Assembly (NCBI GenBank): GCA_963663475.2
Contig: CAXXJV010000002.1
Coordinates: 96,001 to 160,000 of the forward strand
DNA from: Candidatus Cloacimonadales bacterium
GTDB lineage: Bacteria > Cloacimonadota > Cloacimonadia > Cloacimonadales > JAFGVF01
Direction of reading: 5' to 3'
DNA length: 64,000 nt
Part shown: piece by piece, positions 5,064-13,814 of the stretch
Layout of the letters: each line of letters opens with the position of its first letter
How positions within the stretch are numbered: position 1 is the first letter of the stretch
The notes under the pieces: generated by a model
The model's database searches: none
Told to the model about the DNA's origin: nothing
Seen by the model: the letters and a program-made list of their open reading frames with translations, nothing else
Made by a program: the position numbers and the translations under genes

Positions 5064-7184
5064 TTATTTGAGCAAGAGAGCTTTTTTAATAACTTCCTGT
5101 TTATCAGATTTATATTTAAAGAAGTAGATACCGGAAGCAACTCTTGTTCGTCTTTGATTTCTACCATCCCAAACAATTTTCTCCTGGTCAATATTATGAT
5201 AAGTTTTTACTATCTGTCCTTTGATATTGTAGATAATAAGCTGATTATTATTACTATCAATAGGAAGTTTGAGAGTAACTTCTGGATTAAAGGGATTAGG
5301 GTAAAGTAACATATCAGTTAAAGAGGCTTGGCTATCAGTCTCATTACTAAGAGCTTGCAATTCAAGAGGACCTAAATCTAAACCACCATTAAAAAATCTA
5401 CTATTCCCCATTATATCAAGTTGGGGAACTTGTAATTGATAGGGGATATCACTAGTCGCAGAATCAATAATTTCGGGGTTAAGACTAAAGTTATAGATTC
5501 CGTTATCATCAATCTCAAAAGCAAGTTCATTTACAAATATATTGTTTAATCCAAAAGAAAAATCCAAAGCATTGAATCTAGTATGATAGGCTTTAGCTGA
5601 AAATAATTGATTATCCATGAAGAAGTTATCAATATTCTGATAAATAATATTATTATAAATAATAGCTTTTGAAATATAAGTTTCAATTATTCCAGTTGAG
5701 TGGAAATCATCAGTATTCAAGACTTCATTATTACAGATAGTATTGTTTATAATTCTGGGATTTGAATAATTTATTAAAGCAAAAGAGCCTCCTAGCTCTG
5801 CTTTATTATCATTAACCTGATTGTTAATAAATGAAATATTAGAATCTTTATTTAAGGCTAAAACGCTTCCATAGTTGGCATAATTATATCTAAAAATCGA
5901 ATTTTCTATTCTTATTTTATCGAAATCATAGACATTGAAAACAGCTCCCGCATCAGTAAAAGAACTTTGCTGGTTAGCAAGAGCTTTTGCATATTCAAAA
6001 ATAGCATATTGAAAAAGTGAAGCTTGGTTACTATCATTAGTCTGGTTATATTTAAAACCATTCCAACATCCTGCTAAATCATTATCATAAGTAAAAAGAT
6101 AAGGGTCTGCTGCTGTGAAAGTAATTCTCTCATCAGCATTTCCTTGAGCAAGAAGAGTGCCTTGGACATCAATATGATAAAATTCATTAAAACTAATATT
6201 AGCTCCTGGAGAAAAAGCTAAAGTTACACCATTTTCTATTAGAACATTATCAGTAACTTGGATATCCAAAGAAGTTAAAAGTAGAGATTCAGAGATGGTT
6301 CCAGACAAAGTAGTCCTATCATCAGGAGTTAAATCTCTTTTATGTTTATTTTCTGATGTATATAGCTTACCAGTATCAAAAGTTTGGCATCCATATCCTA
6401 TAGCTGGGCTATTAGCCTGTAAAGTATAGTCTCCATTTACAGGGTCAGTTAATAATGGATCTAGCATAGAAATATTATTATAAGAGCTGGCATCCTGCCA
6501 AGTAGCTGGAGCAACTCAGCCATAGTCACAGAAAAGGCCATAATGATTCATAGCTATTTCATTAGCCCGCCAATCACTAAAATAAGACCAATTATCTGAA
6601 ACAGTAGGTGGCCCATAAGTCTCAATAAAAATTGTAGAGACAAGGTTATGGCCAGTTGGTAGCCATTCAAGACTTTCACTTGTATAATTAACAAAATCAT
6701 CACCAGTTGAATATGTATCTACAAAGATGTTATTAGTAATAGAAATACCTTGTCCTGCTGAATGAATTCTAACTGCATAATCTTCAGCATGATAAAAGGT
6801 TACGTGGCTTACAGATCCTTGAGGTATAAGATTAGTCCCTTCTGTAGAACCCCTAAATTTTACACCACCATTAATTATTACGCAGTCACTAATATCTAAT
6901 CTTTTATCAGTATATTGAATAGTGATAAAGCCTCCCTGTAAATCAAGGATAGCACCATTACCTATAATATTCACATTAGCACCCAAGGTATCTGTAAAGG
7001 TTCCAGGAATATGGTTATAGAGACCTCCAATAAGCAAAGAGCCTGTATAGACTTGGCCAGTATTTAGAATCAGCACTTTGTCATAAAGAGCTGTACCCTC
7101 AGCGTTATCATAAACTTCTTTTAAGCTTGTTCCATTTAGCAGAACAGCTAATATTAATAGCATTGTAGTTAGATATATTTTCAT
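5064..7184 (-). CDS. Secreted beta-helix-type protein with C-terminal FlgD-Ig/T9SS-like domain; single frame with in-frame TGA at 6518-6516 (candidate Sec/readthrough, 706 aa)
   Basis: Track ORFs 6516-7184 and 5064-6467 share a frame and the 16 intervening codons are open (VAPATWQDASSYNNIS). The signal peptide is only on the first part, the YPNPFNP domain only on the second, and there is no SD before ATG 6467. Confidence 0.72.
6484..6518 (-). promoter_or_regulatory. Candidate bacterial SECIS-like hairpin directly 3' of the in-frame UGA
   Basis: mRNA UGA-GUUGCUCCAGCUACU-UGGCA-GGA-UGCCA-GCUC; apical loop starts with G, 20 nt after the UGA. Confidence 0.5.
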
Positions 7185-7193
7185 CTTATTTTC

Positions 7194-7721
7194 CTATTTC
7201 ATTAAATGTATCTTGCGTATTTTAGAATATCCTTGAGGAGAAGATACTTTGTAAAAATATATTCCGCTATGACAAGTATTCCCCTCATTGTCTTTTCCAT
7301 CCCAATCTAAGCTATGATGTCCTTGAGAAAACTCTTTCTTAACTAGATCCCTTACTAAATGGCCTTTCATATCATAAATCTTTACTTCTATTAAAGCACT
7401 TTTAGGAAGAGAAAAATAAATGTTAGCTTCAGGACTAAAAGGATTTGGATAATAAGCCTCATTAGATATTATATTTTCTTTGTATTCAGCTTCTTGGAGT
7501 AACTCAGTCTTCCTACTAACATCTACAATATCTAGGGTATCGGATATAGTAGTTGAATCAATGTTACTTTTGGCAGAGTATATGTTTAAACTATCAGGAG
7601 AAACTGAGTTAGTAGATGTTAAAGAAGAATAATATCTCATGGAAGTAAAAGAATTATCTTTACAAGCAATAAGGTAGAATATTATAAATAATGCTAAACC
7701 AAGTATAAGTGCTTTTTTCAT
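7194..7721 (-). CDS. Putative lipoprotein with FlgD-Ig/T9SS-like C-terminal domain
   Basis: LIAC lipobox-like site; YPNPFSP...IYDMKG...WDGKD...SGIYFY; start set at ATG 7721 after GGAG. Confidence 0.8.
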   Translation of the reverse strand: MKKALILGLALFIIFYLIACKDNSFTSMRYYSSLTSTNSVSPDSLNIYSAKSNIDSTTISDTLDIVDVSRKTELLQEAEYKENIISNEAYYPNPFSPEANIYFSLPKSALIEVKIYDMKGHLVRDLVKKEFSQGHHSLDWDGKDNEGNTCHSGIYFYKVSSPQGYSKIRKIHLMK

Positions 7722-7800
7722 TATAACTCCTTTTTTATAAGACAAGCAAGTAAGGTAAGAGTCAGCAAATCTACTTTAGATGTTATAAGAATCTCTTATT

Positions 7801-8973
7801 TTATTTAATCTTAATCTGTTTAATTACTGTCACTTCTCCCAGTGAATTTTCAAACTTAAATAAATAAATTCCACTAGAGAAATTAGTAAGCTTAAGATTT
7901 GAAGTTTTAGAGGAGTTTACTCGGGAAGAATATATCTTTTGTCCTTTAATATTATAAATACTTATTTTCTCGATTAGATTTTTTGAAGAAAAATTAACTT
8001 CATCAATAAAAGGATTAGGATAAAGAGAAACAATAAAATCATTAGCAATAACATCATTATCTGAGTTATTAACTACTTCTTCATAATTATAATCGTATTT
8101 ATAGGAGTTGTTCCATATTTGATTTTCATTATCCCATAACTTGGATATAAGCTGGCTAGTATTCAAATTATCATTATAGTAATACTGGTAGTTATCATAG
8201 TATTGCCATTGATTATCAGCAAAAGTTATCCCTTCAGTGTAATTTATAAGGCCATTTGTATCGTAAGTATGATTATATTGAAGATAACTTAGCCAAGTTG
8301 TTTCAGACCATGATTGCCAGTCTTCATGAATAATTGAACCACTATCATTACGCTGATAAATACCTTTAATATAGTTGTTCCAGTTAACATCATCAGTTGA
8401 GTAAGTCCAAGTCTCAACTTCTACTCTCCCTTGACTATCATATTCATAAGCTACATCATAAATAGCATCAATTTCTTTGGCTGAAGAGAAGTAAGTCCAT
8501 TCTTCATTAATAAGAAAACCCTCATTATCATAGATATAATCAATATGTAAATATGGTTGCCAAGTGTCATTAGACCAGAAGTCTTGCTGATAAGTAAGAA
8601 TTAAATCTTCTTCATTATATGTATAAGTTTCTTGTTGATAATTTATCCAACCATTATCATAAATTTGATAGATTTCTTGAAGTATTCTATCTTCTTGGTA
8701 AGTATAAATATAATTTTCAATTTCTAACCAGTTATCTTCTATATTTTGCTTTACAAGTACAGATTCTAAGCTTGCATCTTGATAGCTATATTCAGCTTTA
8801 TAAGTTTCAATAAAATCATAAGTTAAGCTATCAGCTAGACTATAGATATAACTTACAAGGTGGTCATCTCTAAGAGGTGATTTATGCTTAATTTCTGGTT
8901 TTTTTAGTATATTAAGACTCCACAGAGAAGTCATAAGAAATATAATAAACAAGAAGAGGGAAAGTTTCTTCAT
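7801..8973 (-). CDS. Secreted repeat protein with T9SS type-A-like C-terminal domain
   Basis: Signal peptide; repeated W-x5/6-YxYD/N-x2-G units; YPNPF...IYNIKGQ...SGIYL tail. Confidence 0.78.
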   Translation of the reverse strand: MKKLSLFLFIIFLMTSLWSLNILKKPEIKHKSPLRDDHLVSYIYSLADSLTYDFIETYKAEYSYQDASLESVLVKQNIEDNWLEIENYIYTYQEDRILQEIYQIYDNGWINYQQETYTYNEEDLILTYQQDFWSNDTWQPYLHIDYIYDNEGFLINEEWTYFSSAKEIDAIYDVAYEYDSQGRVEVETWTYSTDDVNWNNYIKGIYQRNDSGSIIHEDWQSWSETTWLSYLQYNHTYDTNGLINYTEGITFADNQWQYYDNYQYYYNDNLNTSQLISKLWDNENQIWNNSYKYDYNYEEVVNNSDNDVIANDFIVSLYPNPFIDEVNFSSKNLIEKISIYNIKGQKIYSSRVNSSKTSNLKLTNFSSGIYLFKFENSLGEVTVIKQIKIK

Positions 8974-11654: not shown

Positions 11655-13814
11655 TTATTCCTCAATTAATTCTACTTTCATTATTTCTGTATTACCATCA
11701 TTTAAGGTAATTTTGGTAATACCTATTAAATCTTTGATCTCAACTCTTCCATTAAAAGATCTTATTCTTTTCCCCATTATATTAAGTTCTGTTTGTGTGG
11801 CAACAATAATTGTCTTGTCTTCCATACTAACCCTTGATTTACTCCTAACAGTTGAAACTTTACCTAATGATTGAAGTAAGATTAAGGTGTTTTCCCAGAA
11901 AGGATTAAGAACTATTGAATATGGCGGTAAATCTTGCCATTCTAAACCTTCATCTTCTTGATAAAGGGGAAGTCTACTCATTAAAATTGCTAAGGCTTGA
12001 AGTCCACTCTTTTTATTACCTTTAAAATCTAATACATTAAATATTCCATCATAAACAGAAAATTCAAGACTAGTCTTCTTGTCAGATTTAATATAGAATC
12101 TTCCTAGTAAGTCAACTTCAACAGTCCATTTCTCAACAAAGGTCTCATTTCCGTAGCTGACTTTAAAAGATGAGGTATCTTCAACTTTCAGATGCAACAA
12201 ATCTTGTAGATAATTAACAGGGATTAAAGCAGAAATTAGGTCATCTTTTTCAGGTATTGCATAAGCATTAAAGGAGAGCTTATCCTCTCTTTTTTTATAG
12301 TTCAAGAGGTTAGATTTAATAGTTTGACTACCTGGTTCTGCTCCTCTTTGAATATTAAAATGAAGGTGGGGAACAGCTGATCTTCCAGAATTACCTACTA
12401 AAGCAATTTTCTCACCTTTAGCTATCCATTCTCCTTTTTTAACTTTAATAGTTCCTTTTTTAATATGACAATACATAGAATATATACCAAATCCGTGGTT
12501 TAGTACAACAAAGTTACCCCAGTTTTCTCTTGTATTAATCTGGCCAATTGGATTATCTTCAATACCATCAATATAATTAGCTACCCAGCCAGCAGCAGAG
12601 GCTAAGATAGGCTTACCATAACAATAAAAATCTTTGGTACTTTGGCCATCTCCCCTGTACTTACTTCCTTGTTCATCAGTAATTTCAAAGTCCCATGCAT
12701 AAGCCCATTGTTCTCGATGGGTAATTTCTCCATGGTTACCTTGAGTAACTTTCCATTCTCCCACAAAAGGAAGATAGAATTGAAGTCCATCAGCTTGATA
12801 AAATCTCCTAATTTTTGAGTAATAATATTTTAAATTATCTTCAGGTATAAAGATGCCAAAGTTAGCAATGTTTGGGTGTTTATTTTGTAGTCTTAAACGT
12901 AAAGCAATAACTATAACCATAACTGTAATGTTCATAGGAAAGGCATAAGGAGCTACATAATAATTCTCGAATAAAAACTGGAAGGCATAAGTTATGATAA
13001 AACCAAGGATACAGGAAAAACCAGCTATAATGTATGATGCTAAGGAAGGTATAAAAAATACACCACCAATACTGATTGCAATTAACATCAGATTTAAGGC
13101 TGTATAGGATATTTGGTATAAACCAATCGTTTCTAAGTAAGCAGTATTAAAGATTGATACAAAGTAGAAGGATATTCCAAAACCCATTAAGGAAAGGAAA
13201 AAACCAATTCTAGAGGTAAGAATTAAGGCTAAAGCAATTAGTAAGCCGGACAGGATATAGGGTGTGAAAAAGATAGAACCTAATGATTGCAAGTAATAGG
13301 TTATAATATTTGTTTCCATAAACTCATTACCCAAGACTATGAACCTATCTTGAACACTTGTTACTTGACCAATTCTCATAATAAAGAAGGAGAAAAGGAT
13401 TGCCACGATAGAAAAAGATATACTCATAGAGGGCATATTCAGATAAGTTGTAGTAAGATAATTTAAGGTAATGAATAAGAGTAAGGTTATAACAGATGAA
13501 CCAAATAATACTAGCCAATAGGATGAAGTCCAGAAGAGTTCATTAGGCATAAAGAAGCCTATCCCTAGAGAAATAAGCATTGAATTAAAGCCATGAATTC
13601 CGCTTCTTGATGTCCAGTCTTCAAAAGAGAGAATTCTTGCAAACAAGATAGCAATCAGAGCTCCCAAGATACCTGTGAGGCCTGTTAATGGTTCGACTAA
13701 TGTTGCTAAAAGAATAAATAAGCCTACCTCTATCTTCTCACTGAAAAGAATAGAGGAGTAGGCATTTATTATTGATAATCCAAGGTTTTTTAGATTATTA
13801 AAGAAACTTGTCAC
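11655..13814 (-). CDS. Urea-transporter-family membrane domain fused to M23 metallopeptidase
   Basis: About 10 TM N-terminal half with GIHGFNS and FPM motifs; M23 zinc motifs H-x5-YAWDF and GNSGRSAVPHLHF. Confidence 0.82.
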   Translation of the reverse strand: MTSFFNNLKNLGLSIINAYSSILFSEKIEVGLFILLATLVEPLTGLTGILGALIAILFARILSFEDWTSRSGIHGFNSMLISLGIGFFMPNELFWTSSYWLVLFGSSVITLLLFITLNYLTTTYLNMPSMSISFSIVAILFSFFIMRIGQVTSVQDRFIVLGNEFMETNIITYYLQSLGSIFFTPYILSGLLIALALILTSRIGFFLSLMGFGISFYFVSIFNTAYLETIGLYQISYTALNLMLIAISIGGVFFIPSLASYIIAGFSCILGFIITYAFQFLFENYYVAPYAFPMNITVMVIVIALRLRLQNKHPNIANFGIFIPEDNLKYYYSKIRRFYQADGLQFYLPFVGEWKVTQGNHGEITHREQWAYAWDFEITDEQGSKYRGDGQSTKDFYCYGKPILASAAGWVANYIDGIEDNPIGQINTRENWGNFVVLNHGFGIYSMYCHIKKGTIKVKKGEWIAKGEKIALVGNSGRSAVPHLHFNIQRGAEPGSQTIKSNLLNYKKREDKLSFNAYAIPEKDDLISALIPVNYLQDLLHLKVEDTSSFKVSYGNETFVEKWTVEVDLLGRFYIKSDKKTSLEFSVYDGIFNVLDFKGNKKSGLQALAILMSRLPLYQEDEGLEWQDLPPYSIVLNPFWENTLILLQSLGKVSTVRSKSRVSMEDKTIIVATQTELNIMGKRIRSFNGRVEIKDLIGITKITLNDGNTEIMKVELIEE

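Follow-up and report, generated by a model that had tools for sequence, protein, structure and literature searches.

Does the TGA at positions 6516–6518 of the DNA studied here end a gene, or does it stand inside one and specify selenocysteine (Sec)? The window, that is, the whole stretch of 64,000 nucleotides (nt) from a Candidatus Cloacimonadales bacterium (contig CAXXJV010000002.1) that was analyzed, carries on its minus strand two open reading frames (ORFs) under translation table 11, 6516–7184 (222 amino acids, aa) and 5064–6467 (467 aa). The former ends in ...HYGLFCDYG-TGA, from where 16 sense codons (VAPATWQDASSYNNIS) link the same frame to the latter. A sequence-only reading of this DNA had interpreted the pair as a single gene for a secreted selenoprotein with a hairpin downstream of the UGA. 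The analysis reported here points in the same direction: 5064–7184 (minus strand) is probably one gene for an exported selenoprotein in which UGA-223 encodes Sec, and we put the probability of this reading at about 0.88. At the nucleotide level, the argument builds on the following features of the window, which include a candidate selenocysteine insertion sequence (SECIS).

5064–7184, minus strand: single gene of 706 codons plus TAA stop; two table-11 ORFs joined by read-through
6516–6518, minus strand: in-frame UGA, codon 223, predicted to be read as selenocysteine; TGA in 19/20 and 79/80 orthologous loci
6528–6530, minus strand: Cys219 codon TGT, first position of the motif [C/U]-[DE]-[YW]-G-U, as placed by alignment
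6487–6501, minus strand: SECIS-like hairpin UUGGCA-GGA-UGCCAG with its GGA loop at 6493–6495

One gene across the TGA

As had been claimed from the sequence, the frame runs past the TGA into ORF 5064–6467, which results in a read-through frame of 706 codons whose single TGA is codon 223. In the second ORF, the table-11 start (Met239; ATG at 6467) indeed sits within a conserved cap motif (...NNxxxxDPxLxDPxNGDY...SPAxGYGC), and in the orthologue alignment Met239 is conserved within the genus only and not beyond. The 16 codons between the TGA and this ATG are conserved as protein, and protein conservation is unbroken across the TGA. Because the downstream ORF has no conserved start and protein conservation crosses the TGA, the two ORFs are one gene. 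The assignment of signal peptide and sorting domain to different parts likewise stood up: a signal-peptide-like segment, judged by eye, is present on the first half only, and the sorting domain, recognized by PF18962 and TIGR04183, on the second half only.

Tabulating the aligned codon in homologues, a check that the sequence-only reading had proposed, gave a consistent picture. A six-frame search of 61 related genomes, the genome of origin included, yielded full-length orthologues of identical architecture in 20, at 34–81% identity. The codon aligned to UGA-223 is TGA in 19 of these 20 and TGC (Cys) in the remaining one (G030), while the other TGAs counted in the related-genome matches are true stops or lie outside the gene. 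A pattern scan of contigs with one genome per species found 176 relatives, of which the best 80 loci, likewise full-length and of this architecture, were used. TGA stands at the aligned position in 79 of these 80; the exception, with Cys, is L109, which is the same gene as in G030. This sole Cys form, with its TGC codon, also appears as locus L016 and as database protein P0009. A motif search located the site in 78 of the 80 loci (77 TGA, one Cys), and the two loci that it passed over, L057 (U-E-Y-A-U) and L082 (C-E-F-S-U), have TGA as well. Removal of duplicates left 82 distinct N-terminal domains (N-domains) in an alignment referred to as A4, which does not include L057 and L082. The main site is Sec in 81/82 and Cys in 1/82 of its sequences or, with these two loci added, Sec in 83 of 84 distinct sequences. 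Cys is thus the only sense codon seen at this column in readable DNA, with no Trp or other residue observed, and Cys forms are unusually rare for a selenoprotein family. The record titles of the 80 loci refer to metagenome-assembled genomes (MAGs) labelled Cloacimonadota, Eisenbacteria, Krumholzibacteriia, Gemmatimonadetes, Bacteroidia, as well as Phycisphaerae and other Planctomycetota, and TGA persists in this column at identities as low as 30–40% in MAGs with six different group labels. Such conservation of the codon is far beyond chance.

Two observations on individual loci may be added. In L057 and L082, Ala or Ser replaces the Gly before Sec, so that this Gly is not strictly required. 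Locus L023 (G010:C132) has a TAA about 620 codons in, ahead of the C-terminal domain (CTD), and could be a truncated or broken copy; an assembly error in this fragmented MAG is another possibility.

A sequencing error at 6516–6518, which had been considered at the outset, was addressed with contigs from four runs of four studies (three on wastewater, one on a microbial mat). All span the site and show no difference from the window at these three positions; elsewhere, they differ from it at four or five positions each, and three of them span all of 6300–6750. No RNA data set is among the sequencing runs listed for this DNA, which has no bearing on its expression. Since independent assemblies bear the same TGA, a sequencing error is excluded.

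The public protein collections searched store the gene as two fragments. A word-index protein search returned six C-terminal fragments (466–470 aa) along with one weak, unrelated match of 1216 aa (E 8.1e-5), and a profile search of 1.84 billion protein representatives yielded 252 proteins at E ≤ 0.001. Among the 150 matches listed, the strong ones end at profile position 200 or 196, in each case just before a TGA, or start at 203–207, and six with E ≤ 1e-12 span the site (P0009, P0010, P0022, P0027, P0030 and P0063). Of these, P0009 is the Cys form from G030, named 'hypothetical protein' or 'predicted outer membrane repeat protein' by some sources, and P0063 is a distant Cys-rich protein. Of nine weaker matches to the site region, the three inspected (P0124, P0156 and P0157) are generic giant β-helix proteins that match in the cap motif only. 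P0124 carries, in two repeats, N-C-x-G-C just before a DP..DP..GD..L...SP cap; this resemblance to the loop could point to a Cys-only relative or be due to chance.

The storage of the two halves as separate proteins, together with the existence of two table-11 ORFs of which the second has an ATG of its own, could be taken to mean that the UGA is a real stop that separates two genes or has created a pseudogene by nonsense mutation. This would leave unexplained why TGA occupies one and the same column in nearly all loci down to 30–40% identity in six labelled groups, why the 16 codons ahead of the ATG are conserved as protein although Met239 is not outside the genus, why signal peptide and sorting domain reside on opposite halves, and why independent assemblies agree. 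We hence regard a real stop as extremely improbable.

Decoding of UGA-223

The genome assembly analyzed (3.30 Mb, two contigs, 33% G+C) contains selA, selB, selC and selD, so that the complete set of genes whose presence the sequence-only reading had suggested to confirm is indeed available. Two of the components are directly adjacent to each other on contig C1:

C1:2349691–2349785: tRNA-Sec, anticodon tca
C1:2348322–2349404: SelA (E 9.3e-128), directly adjoining tRNA-Sec

In addition, a SelB winged-helix domain (E 1.1e-13) is found in a 644-codon frame just upstream of selA, and SelD (E 4.4e-107) is encoded with one in-frame TGA of its own. In this genome (G000), selB, selA and tRNA-Sec lie side by side at C1:2346370–2349785 and selD with its in-frame TGA at C1:619467–620393, all outside the window. 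TGA closes 211 of the 1860 stop-to-stop frames of at least 200 codons and hence is a normal stop elsewhere in the genome. Judging from these data and the conservation of the codon, SelB-dependent insertion of Sec at position 223 is very probable: UGA-223 would be decoded by the organism's own SelB and tRNA-Sec, aided by a small hairpin with a G that begins about 15 nt further on, within the coding sequence.

The gene also follows the distribution of SelA within the phylum, as assessed in 232 genomes with P0022 as gene query (E ≤ 1e-25); given the relatedness of the genomes, the counts serve as description only. The gene occurs in 53 and SelA in 107 of the 232 genomes, and 48 of the 53 gene-bearing genomes have SelA. 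Two of the 53 gene matches (G176 and G214) stop short of the site, whereas the others bear one or two TGAs with the exception of G030, which has SelA despite its Cys form. The family f4, with 98 genomes the largest of the phylum in the collection, has neither the gene (0/98) nor SelA (0/98). Of the gene-bearing genomes from other phyla, five were searched, and SelA is present in all of them. As a side observation, most families of the phylum other than f4 have SelA.

In bacteria, a SECIS is a stem-loop that follows closely on the 3' side of the UGA and displays a G in its small apical loop. The hairpin that had been proposed from the sequence, UGGCA-GGA-UGCCA, maps to 6488–6500, and its loop begins with the 21st nt after the UGA. 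Among the orthologous sequences, two hairpin types can be distinguished. Type A comprises 63 sequences with Trp at codon +6 after Sec and the hairpin in columns 17–23/27–33. Here, 77.3% of the cells are paired as compared to 20–50% with the partners slid, and the core pairs form in 61, 61, 63, 42 and 36 of the 63 sequences. Double changes are seen at three pairs, i.e., columns 23–27 (CG 20, AU 14, UA 2) and two outer pairs, and a subset of 17 type A sequences gives the same picture. Type B is made up of 19 sequences of a ...VSWA subgroup with the hairpin GGUC-AGUUG-GGCY and its loop at +19; 94.7% of the cells are paired vs. 25–50% when slid, 12 cells show double changes, and the covariation score was reached by none of 500 shuffles. 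The conserved loops are accordingly GGA/GGC at +21 or AGUUG at +19. A hint that is independent of the protein sequence comes from the Ala codon in the 3' arm, which is GCC in six of eight same-family orthologues, with GCC accounting for 12.4% of the Ala codons genome-wide. Two further structures performed less well: a GC-rich hairpin further downstream (columns 25–30/36–41) is not supported as a general model for the 63 sequences (55.6% paired cells vs. up to 48% when slid), and a variant with a bulged U was weaker than the unbulged hairpin.

Several points weigh against the assignment of UGA-223 as Sec codon in an exported selenoprotein. The support for Sec insertion is comparative. The hairpin claimed in the sequence-only reading is present and conserved with some compensatory changes, but the window sequence folded by itself is unremarkable: the 45-nt fold has z = −1.64 and 13 of 200 shuffles are as good, so that the hairpin of the window alone is not beyond chance, and the minimum free energy structure has a different pairing. 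Moreover, the arms overlap conserved Trp and Ala codons, so that their conservation is in part a protein constraint, the tested structures were derived from the same sequences on which they were scored, and the Cys-form gene keeps its type B hairpin. A simple stem finder prefers another stem, further downstream and with its loop at +23 to +28, in 16 of the 63 type A sequences; most of these 16 come from Planctomycetota and other MAGs of high G+C. Five of the 53 gene-bearing genomes (G016, G155, G168, G173 and G180) gave no SelA match; these are fragmented MAGs of 220–550 contigs or only 64% complete. Across phyla, no conserved gene neighborhood was found that would hint at a substrate. Finally, four database proteins, read at the protein level only, have W at the Sec columns, i.e., P0010 (...LWEYGW..., W at both columns), P0022 (CDTGW), P0027 (CNTGW) and P0030 (WATGW).

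These W forms provide the basis for another explanation, according to which the UGA stands for a standard residue, namely Trp, through near-cognate decoding, a suppressor or a local change of the code. They all originate from contigs of 2.5–8.2 kb (JGI, Logan, ENA and NCBI-derived), and in all four the second column reads W and the first either C or W, which mirrors the C/U plus U pattern of the genes with TGA. For this reason, W in these proteins may be nothing other than TGA, as metagenome gene callers can switch to table 4 and would then translate it as Trp. Further evidence speaks against a Trp reading: the 11 nearest relatives of P0010 in the phylum (46–49% identity) all have TGA, TGA terminates many long frames in the genome, DNA sequences show no sense codon other than Cys in this column, and the gene tracks SelA. 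Decoding as Trp is therefore highly improbable. Metagenome scans retrieved no relative with P0010 and only unrelated CTD proteins with an alignment of the short forms (A5), and searches of the 232 phylum genomes and of five from other phyla turned up long TGA forms only. The short forms are P0022, P0027 and P0030, metagenomic proteins of 319–355 aa in which the N-domain is followed directly by the CTD and two of which have neither Cys101 nor Cys266 (see below).

The protein and its [C/U]-x3-U site

On the level of the protein, the gene can be divided as follows, with T9SS denoting the type IX secretion system.

7125–7184, minus strand: signal-peptide-like segment, approximately residues 1–20 (MKIYLTTMLLILAVLLNGTS), judged by eye as MK followed by a hydrophobic run
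6375–7118, minus strand: first right-handed β-helix domain, approximately residues 23–270, predicted by an AlphaFold model, with the Sec loop near its C-terminal end
6882–6884, minus strand: Cys101 codon in a DIxDC motif, conserved in at least 90% of the sequences
6387–6389, minus strand: Cys266 codon in a YGCQ motif, invariant in 82 long-form sequences
5355–6329, minus strand: second β-helix domain, approximately residues 286–610, predicted by the full-length model
5079–5306, minus strand: T9SS type A C-terminal sorting domain, residues 627–702 (PF18962, TIGR04183)

The signal-peptide-like N-terminus was recognized by eye in all 20 orthologues. At the other end, the sorting domain scores above the cut-offs of both PF18962 (E 4.6e-9, 36.9 bits vs. 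a cut-off of 27) and TIGR04183 (36.4 bits vs. 23); apart from it, no Pfam or NCBIfam domain was found in the 706-residue protein. As to the secretion machinery, SprA_N is present in the genome (62.2 bits, over its cut-off), and the PorV model reaches 139.6 bits, which is under its cut-off of 250. A total of 129 places in the genome match the second-domain/CTD part, mostly the CTD alone, and there is one full-length match. With a signal peptide, two right-handed β-helix domains and a type IX secretion CTD, the product would be made for the cell surface of this anaerobe or the medium, and export and surface display are probable on the grounds of these sequence features.

The full-length model, built with 20 sequences, has a predicted local distance difference test (pLDDT) score of 82.7 and shows two right-handed β-helix domains plus an immunoglobulin-like CTD. 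Using Foldseek, it was matched to two-domain β-helix enzymes (7dmk_C, E 2.3e-5; 7v6i_A, E 2.0e-5) and to CTDs of T9SS cargo, for example, 8glk_D. An AlphaFold model of the N-domain alone, based on 82 sequences, reaches a pLDDT of 92.1 and a predicted template modelling score (pTM) of 0.90, and places Sec in a loop that follows the final long strand of the first helix; the blocks concerned have a pLDDT of 95–98. The best solved match of this domain is 7dmk_A, a PL6 alginate lyase (Z 14.7, root-mean-square deviation 3.2, 189 residues aligned), followed at Z 10–13 by many pectate lyases, tailspikes and NosD. With this domain by itself as query, Foldseek returned nothing at E ≤ 0.001. Such matches inform on the fold of the modelled domain and say nothing of its function. 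By sequence, Pfam Beta_helix stays below its curated cut-off on the N-domain (first member), with E ≤ 1 in 53 of 82 members and DUF5123 in 44 of 82; a sequence search of the PDB resulted in one match (E 0.0074) that is confined to the cap motif. Pfam profiles assign the N-domain to no curated sequence family, nor was a catalytic signature typical of lyases recognized in it.

Cys219 precedes UGA-223 by four codons (C-x3-U), and the alignment of the 20 orthologues defines the site as [C/U]-[DE]-[YW]-G-U. At the column of Cys219, 16 of these 20 have Cys and four have TGA; among the 82 distinct sequences, TGA is found in eight, which gives rise to U-x3-U forms, and L057 is one more. In these forms, one hairpin would have to serve two UGAs that are 12 nt apart, with about 33 nt between the first UGA and the loop, which is within the accepted range for bacterial SECIS elements. 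The history of the site was followed on a quick IQ-TREE tree (LG+G4) of the 82 N-domains with the motif columns omitted; it is unrooted, so that the direction of changes is unassigned. The eight U-x3-U forms require eight changes on this tree, of which at least four are forced by well-supported branches. They are scattered over the tree and cluster no more than shuffled labels do, while the sole Cys223 form is nested within a Sec clade. Recurrent Cys/Sec exchange, as observed at position 219, is a pattern expected of a working thiol/selenol. Because Cys alternates with Sec in this column, the Cys four residues before the UGA, to which the sequence-only reading had drawn attention, appears to be functionally linked to it. 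Further residues round the site are invariant or nearly so as well; in A4, those conserved to this extent include N198, W199, N208, H214, C219, G222 and U223.

Two further Cys residues, Cys101 and Cys266, may form a separate disulfide. Cys101 is replaced by Leu in L080 and L083 as well as in two of the three short-form proteins, and the same two short-form proteins have Val instead of Cys266. In L080 and L083, however, only Cys101 is missing.

Taken together, Sec223 and Cys219 appear to be the working center of the protein, given that Sec is present in 83/84 sequences, that its partner switches between Cys and Sec, and that a single Cys form exists among the long forms in readable DNA. The [C/U]-[DE]-[YW]-G-U site, in a loop close to where the first β-helix ends, would most likely act on an extracellular substrate, either as a redox-active selenenylsulfide/selenol or as a ligand pair for a soft metal or metalloid. 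A catalytic redox role of Cys219/Sec223, possibly with the participation of His214, is a tentative proposal somewhat short of even odds, and binding of a metal or metalloid is rather unlikely. Should the site carry out such chemistry, candidate substrates would be polysulfide or elemental sulfur, selenium or tellurium oxyanions, or a redox step in polymer breakdown.

Two alternatives accept Sec at position 223 and interpret it differently. Since Cys101 and Cys266 resemble a separate pair that was lost together in two of three short forms, and disulfides are common in exported proteins, the selenenylsulfide of Sec223 and Cys219 (in the U-x3-U forms, a diselenide) could have a structural role only and fasten a loop of a polysaccharide-active β-helix enzyme with catalysis elsewhere. 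The similarity of the fold to polysaccharide lyases and hydrolases, in particular to 7dmk_A and, at lower Z, pectate lyases and tailspikes, would be in line with this. Structural disulfides normally use Cys, so that the retention of the costly Sec in nearly all sequences argues for chemistry that Cys cannot supply; that no lyase-family signature was identified and that Pfam gives no curated match for the N-domain do not favor such an enzyme either. Consequently, a purely structural bond is quite unlikely.

The second alternative builds on the competition between RF2-mediated termination and SelB, which is established for bacterial Sec codons. Sec insertion could then be mainly regulatory, with the selenium supply selecting between an unsortable product of 222 residues and the full-length sorted protein, as the truncated product would be devoid of both the second domain and the T9SS signal. 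The sequence-only reading had likewise mentioned regulated read-through into short and long isoforms. A selenium switch offers no reason why the neighboring Cys alternates with Sec, why Cys is the only replacement of Sec, or why H214, C219, G222 and N198–W199 are invariant or nearly so, and is improbable as the main role of the codon. Short and long isoforms may arise as a side effect of the competition with termination.

Relation to known systems and genomic surroundings

Known bacterial selenoproteins are mostly cytoplasmic or periplasmic redox enzymes, many of which have thioredoxin-like folds. A 2026 review lists 119 prokaryotic selenoprotein families and subfamilies in its Table 1 and describes a thioredoxin-like fold for most characterized selenoproteins (PMC13188914). 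In its accessible part, this table has no β-helix, T9SS or C-x3-U entry. The accessible portions of PMC13188914, PMC12013277 and PMC13326102 contain no mention of Cloacimonadota, secretion, β-helix or T9SS, and the supplementary BSepDB/deep-Sep family lists might still include the family. No selenoprotein model of NCBIfam release 20 matches the protein, and among the papers listed in text searches, none that is relevant connects type IX secretion, Cloacimonadota or a β-helix with selenoproteins or selenocysteine. As far as checked, the selenoprotein family is new and undescribed. The impression from the sequence that it is unlike the known redox selenoproteins is corroborated by the fold, which is a predicted β-helix and not thioredoxin-like.

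Exported or envelope selenoproteins have been predicted in bacteria before (PMC13188914, accessible part of Table 1), and they share with the present protein an in-frame UGA with a downstream hairpin, a Cys near Sec, and a product that leaves the cytoplasm. Unlike these proteins, which adopt a thioredoxin fold or a β-barrel and carry CxxU or UxxC, the protein studied here combines a predicted right-handed β-helix with C-x3-U and a T9SS sorting domain, and their NCBIfam models do not match it. With its β-helix and C-x3-U, it also falls outside the thioredoxin-fold CxxU/UxxC redox selenoproteins in general. Two close Sec/Cys positions that can both be Sec are also found in the UxxU 'putative mercuric reductase' NF041115 and in MbdU NF045648 (PMC13188914, accessible part), yet there is no sequence relationship, the spacing is different, and the scaffold here is an exported β-helix.

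From the viewpoint of the scaffold, the PL6 alginate lyase BcAlyPL6 (PDB 7dmk) likewise has two tandem right-handed β-helix domains; sequence identity to it is 11–16%, and the shared fold does not show a shared function. We know of no Sec or equivalent Cys pair in PL6. Generic T9SS β-helix cargo with a type A CTD (TIGR04183) has the same order of signal peptide, β-helix passenger and CTD, but the N-domain with the Sec site is present in only one protein of this genome. The way in which Sec is encoded is the same as in other bacterial selenoproteins. Hence, the decoding principle is ordinary. Unusual features are the fold and the location, the nearly obligate use of Sec, and a partner residue that alternates between Cys and Sec.

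If the most far-reaching interpretation applies, this would be the first cell-surface, T9SS-secreted selenoenzyme family, in which the [C/U]-x3-U loop performs extracellular redox or metal(loid) chemistry beyond that of cysteine, and an almost obligate Sec protein of anaerobes represented by MAGs labelled as at least six bacterial groups; at present, this is a speculative proposal with the odds leaning against it. A family of large exported β-helix proteins with a T9SS signal, near-constant Sec, a partner that changes from Cys to Sec and members in six labelled groups would widen the range of places and folds in which selenium chemistry is used. As the gene is split in two in the public collections searched, the family will be missed when surface proteins or selenoproteomes are surveyed in wastewater, digesters, mats and sediments. 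A profile such as A4 would allow annotators to join the halves, and U223 and C219 offer a concrete target for addressing the role of an extracellular selenol in anoxic habitats.

In the surroundings of the gene, apparent neighbor clusters were dismissed as spurious frames inside the gene or neighbors conserved in the genus only. Pfam searches with ten neighboring ORFs revealed nothing related, with matches to TPR, a urea transporter plus M23, a decarboxylase, an ATP-grasp protein and sugar enzymes, and two ORFs unmatched. Two upstream genes on the minus strand (7194–7745 and 7801–8973) also have a T9SS CTD with no other Pfam domain and are neighbors within the genus only; the nearer one (7194–7745) ends 9 nt before the start of the selenoprotein gene. 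Further away, 11655–13814 (minus strand) is a frame of 719 codons that unites a urea-transporter domain (PF03253, E 5.3e-38) with a peptidase M23 domain (E 4.4e-18), an unusual combination.

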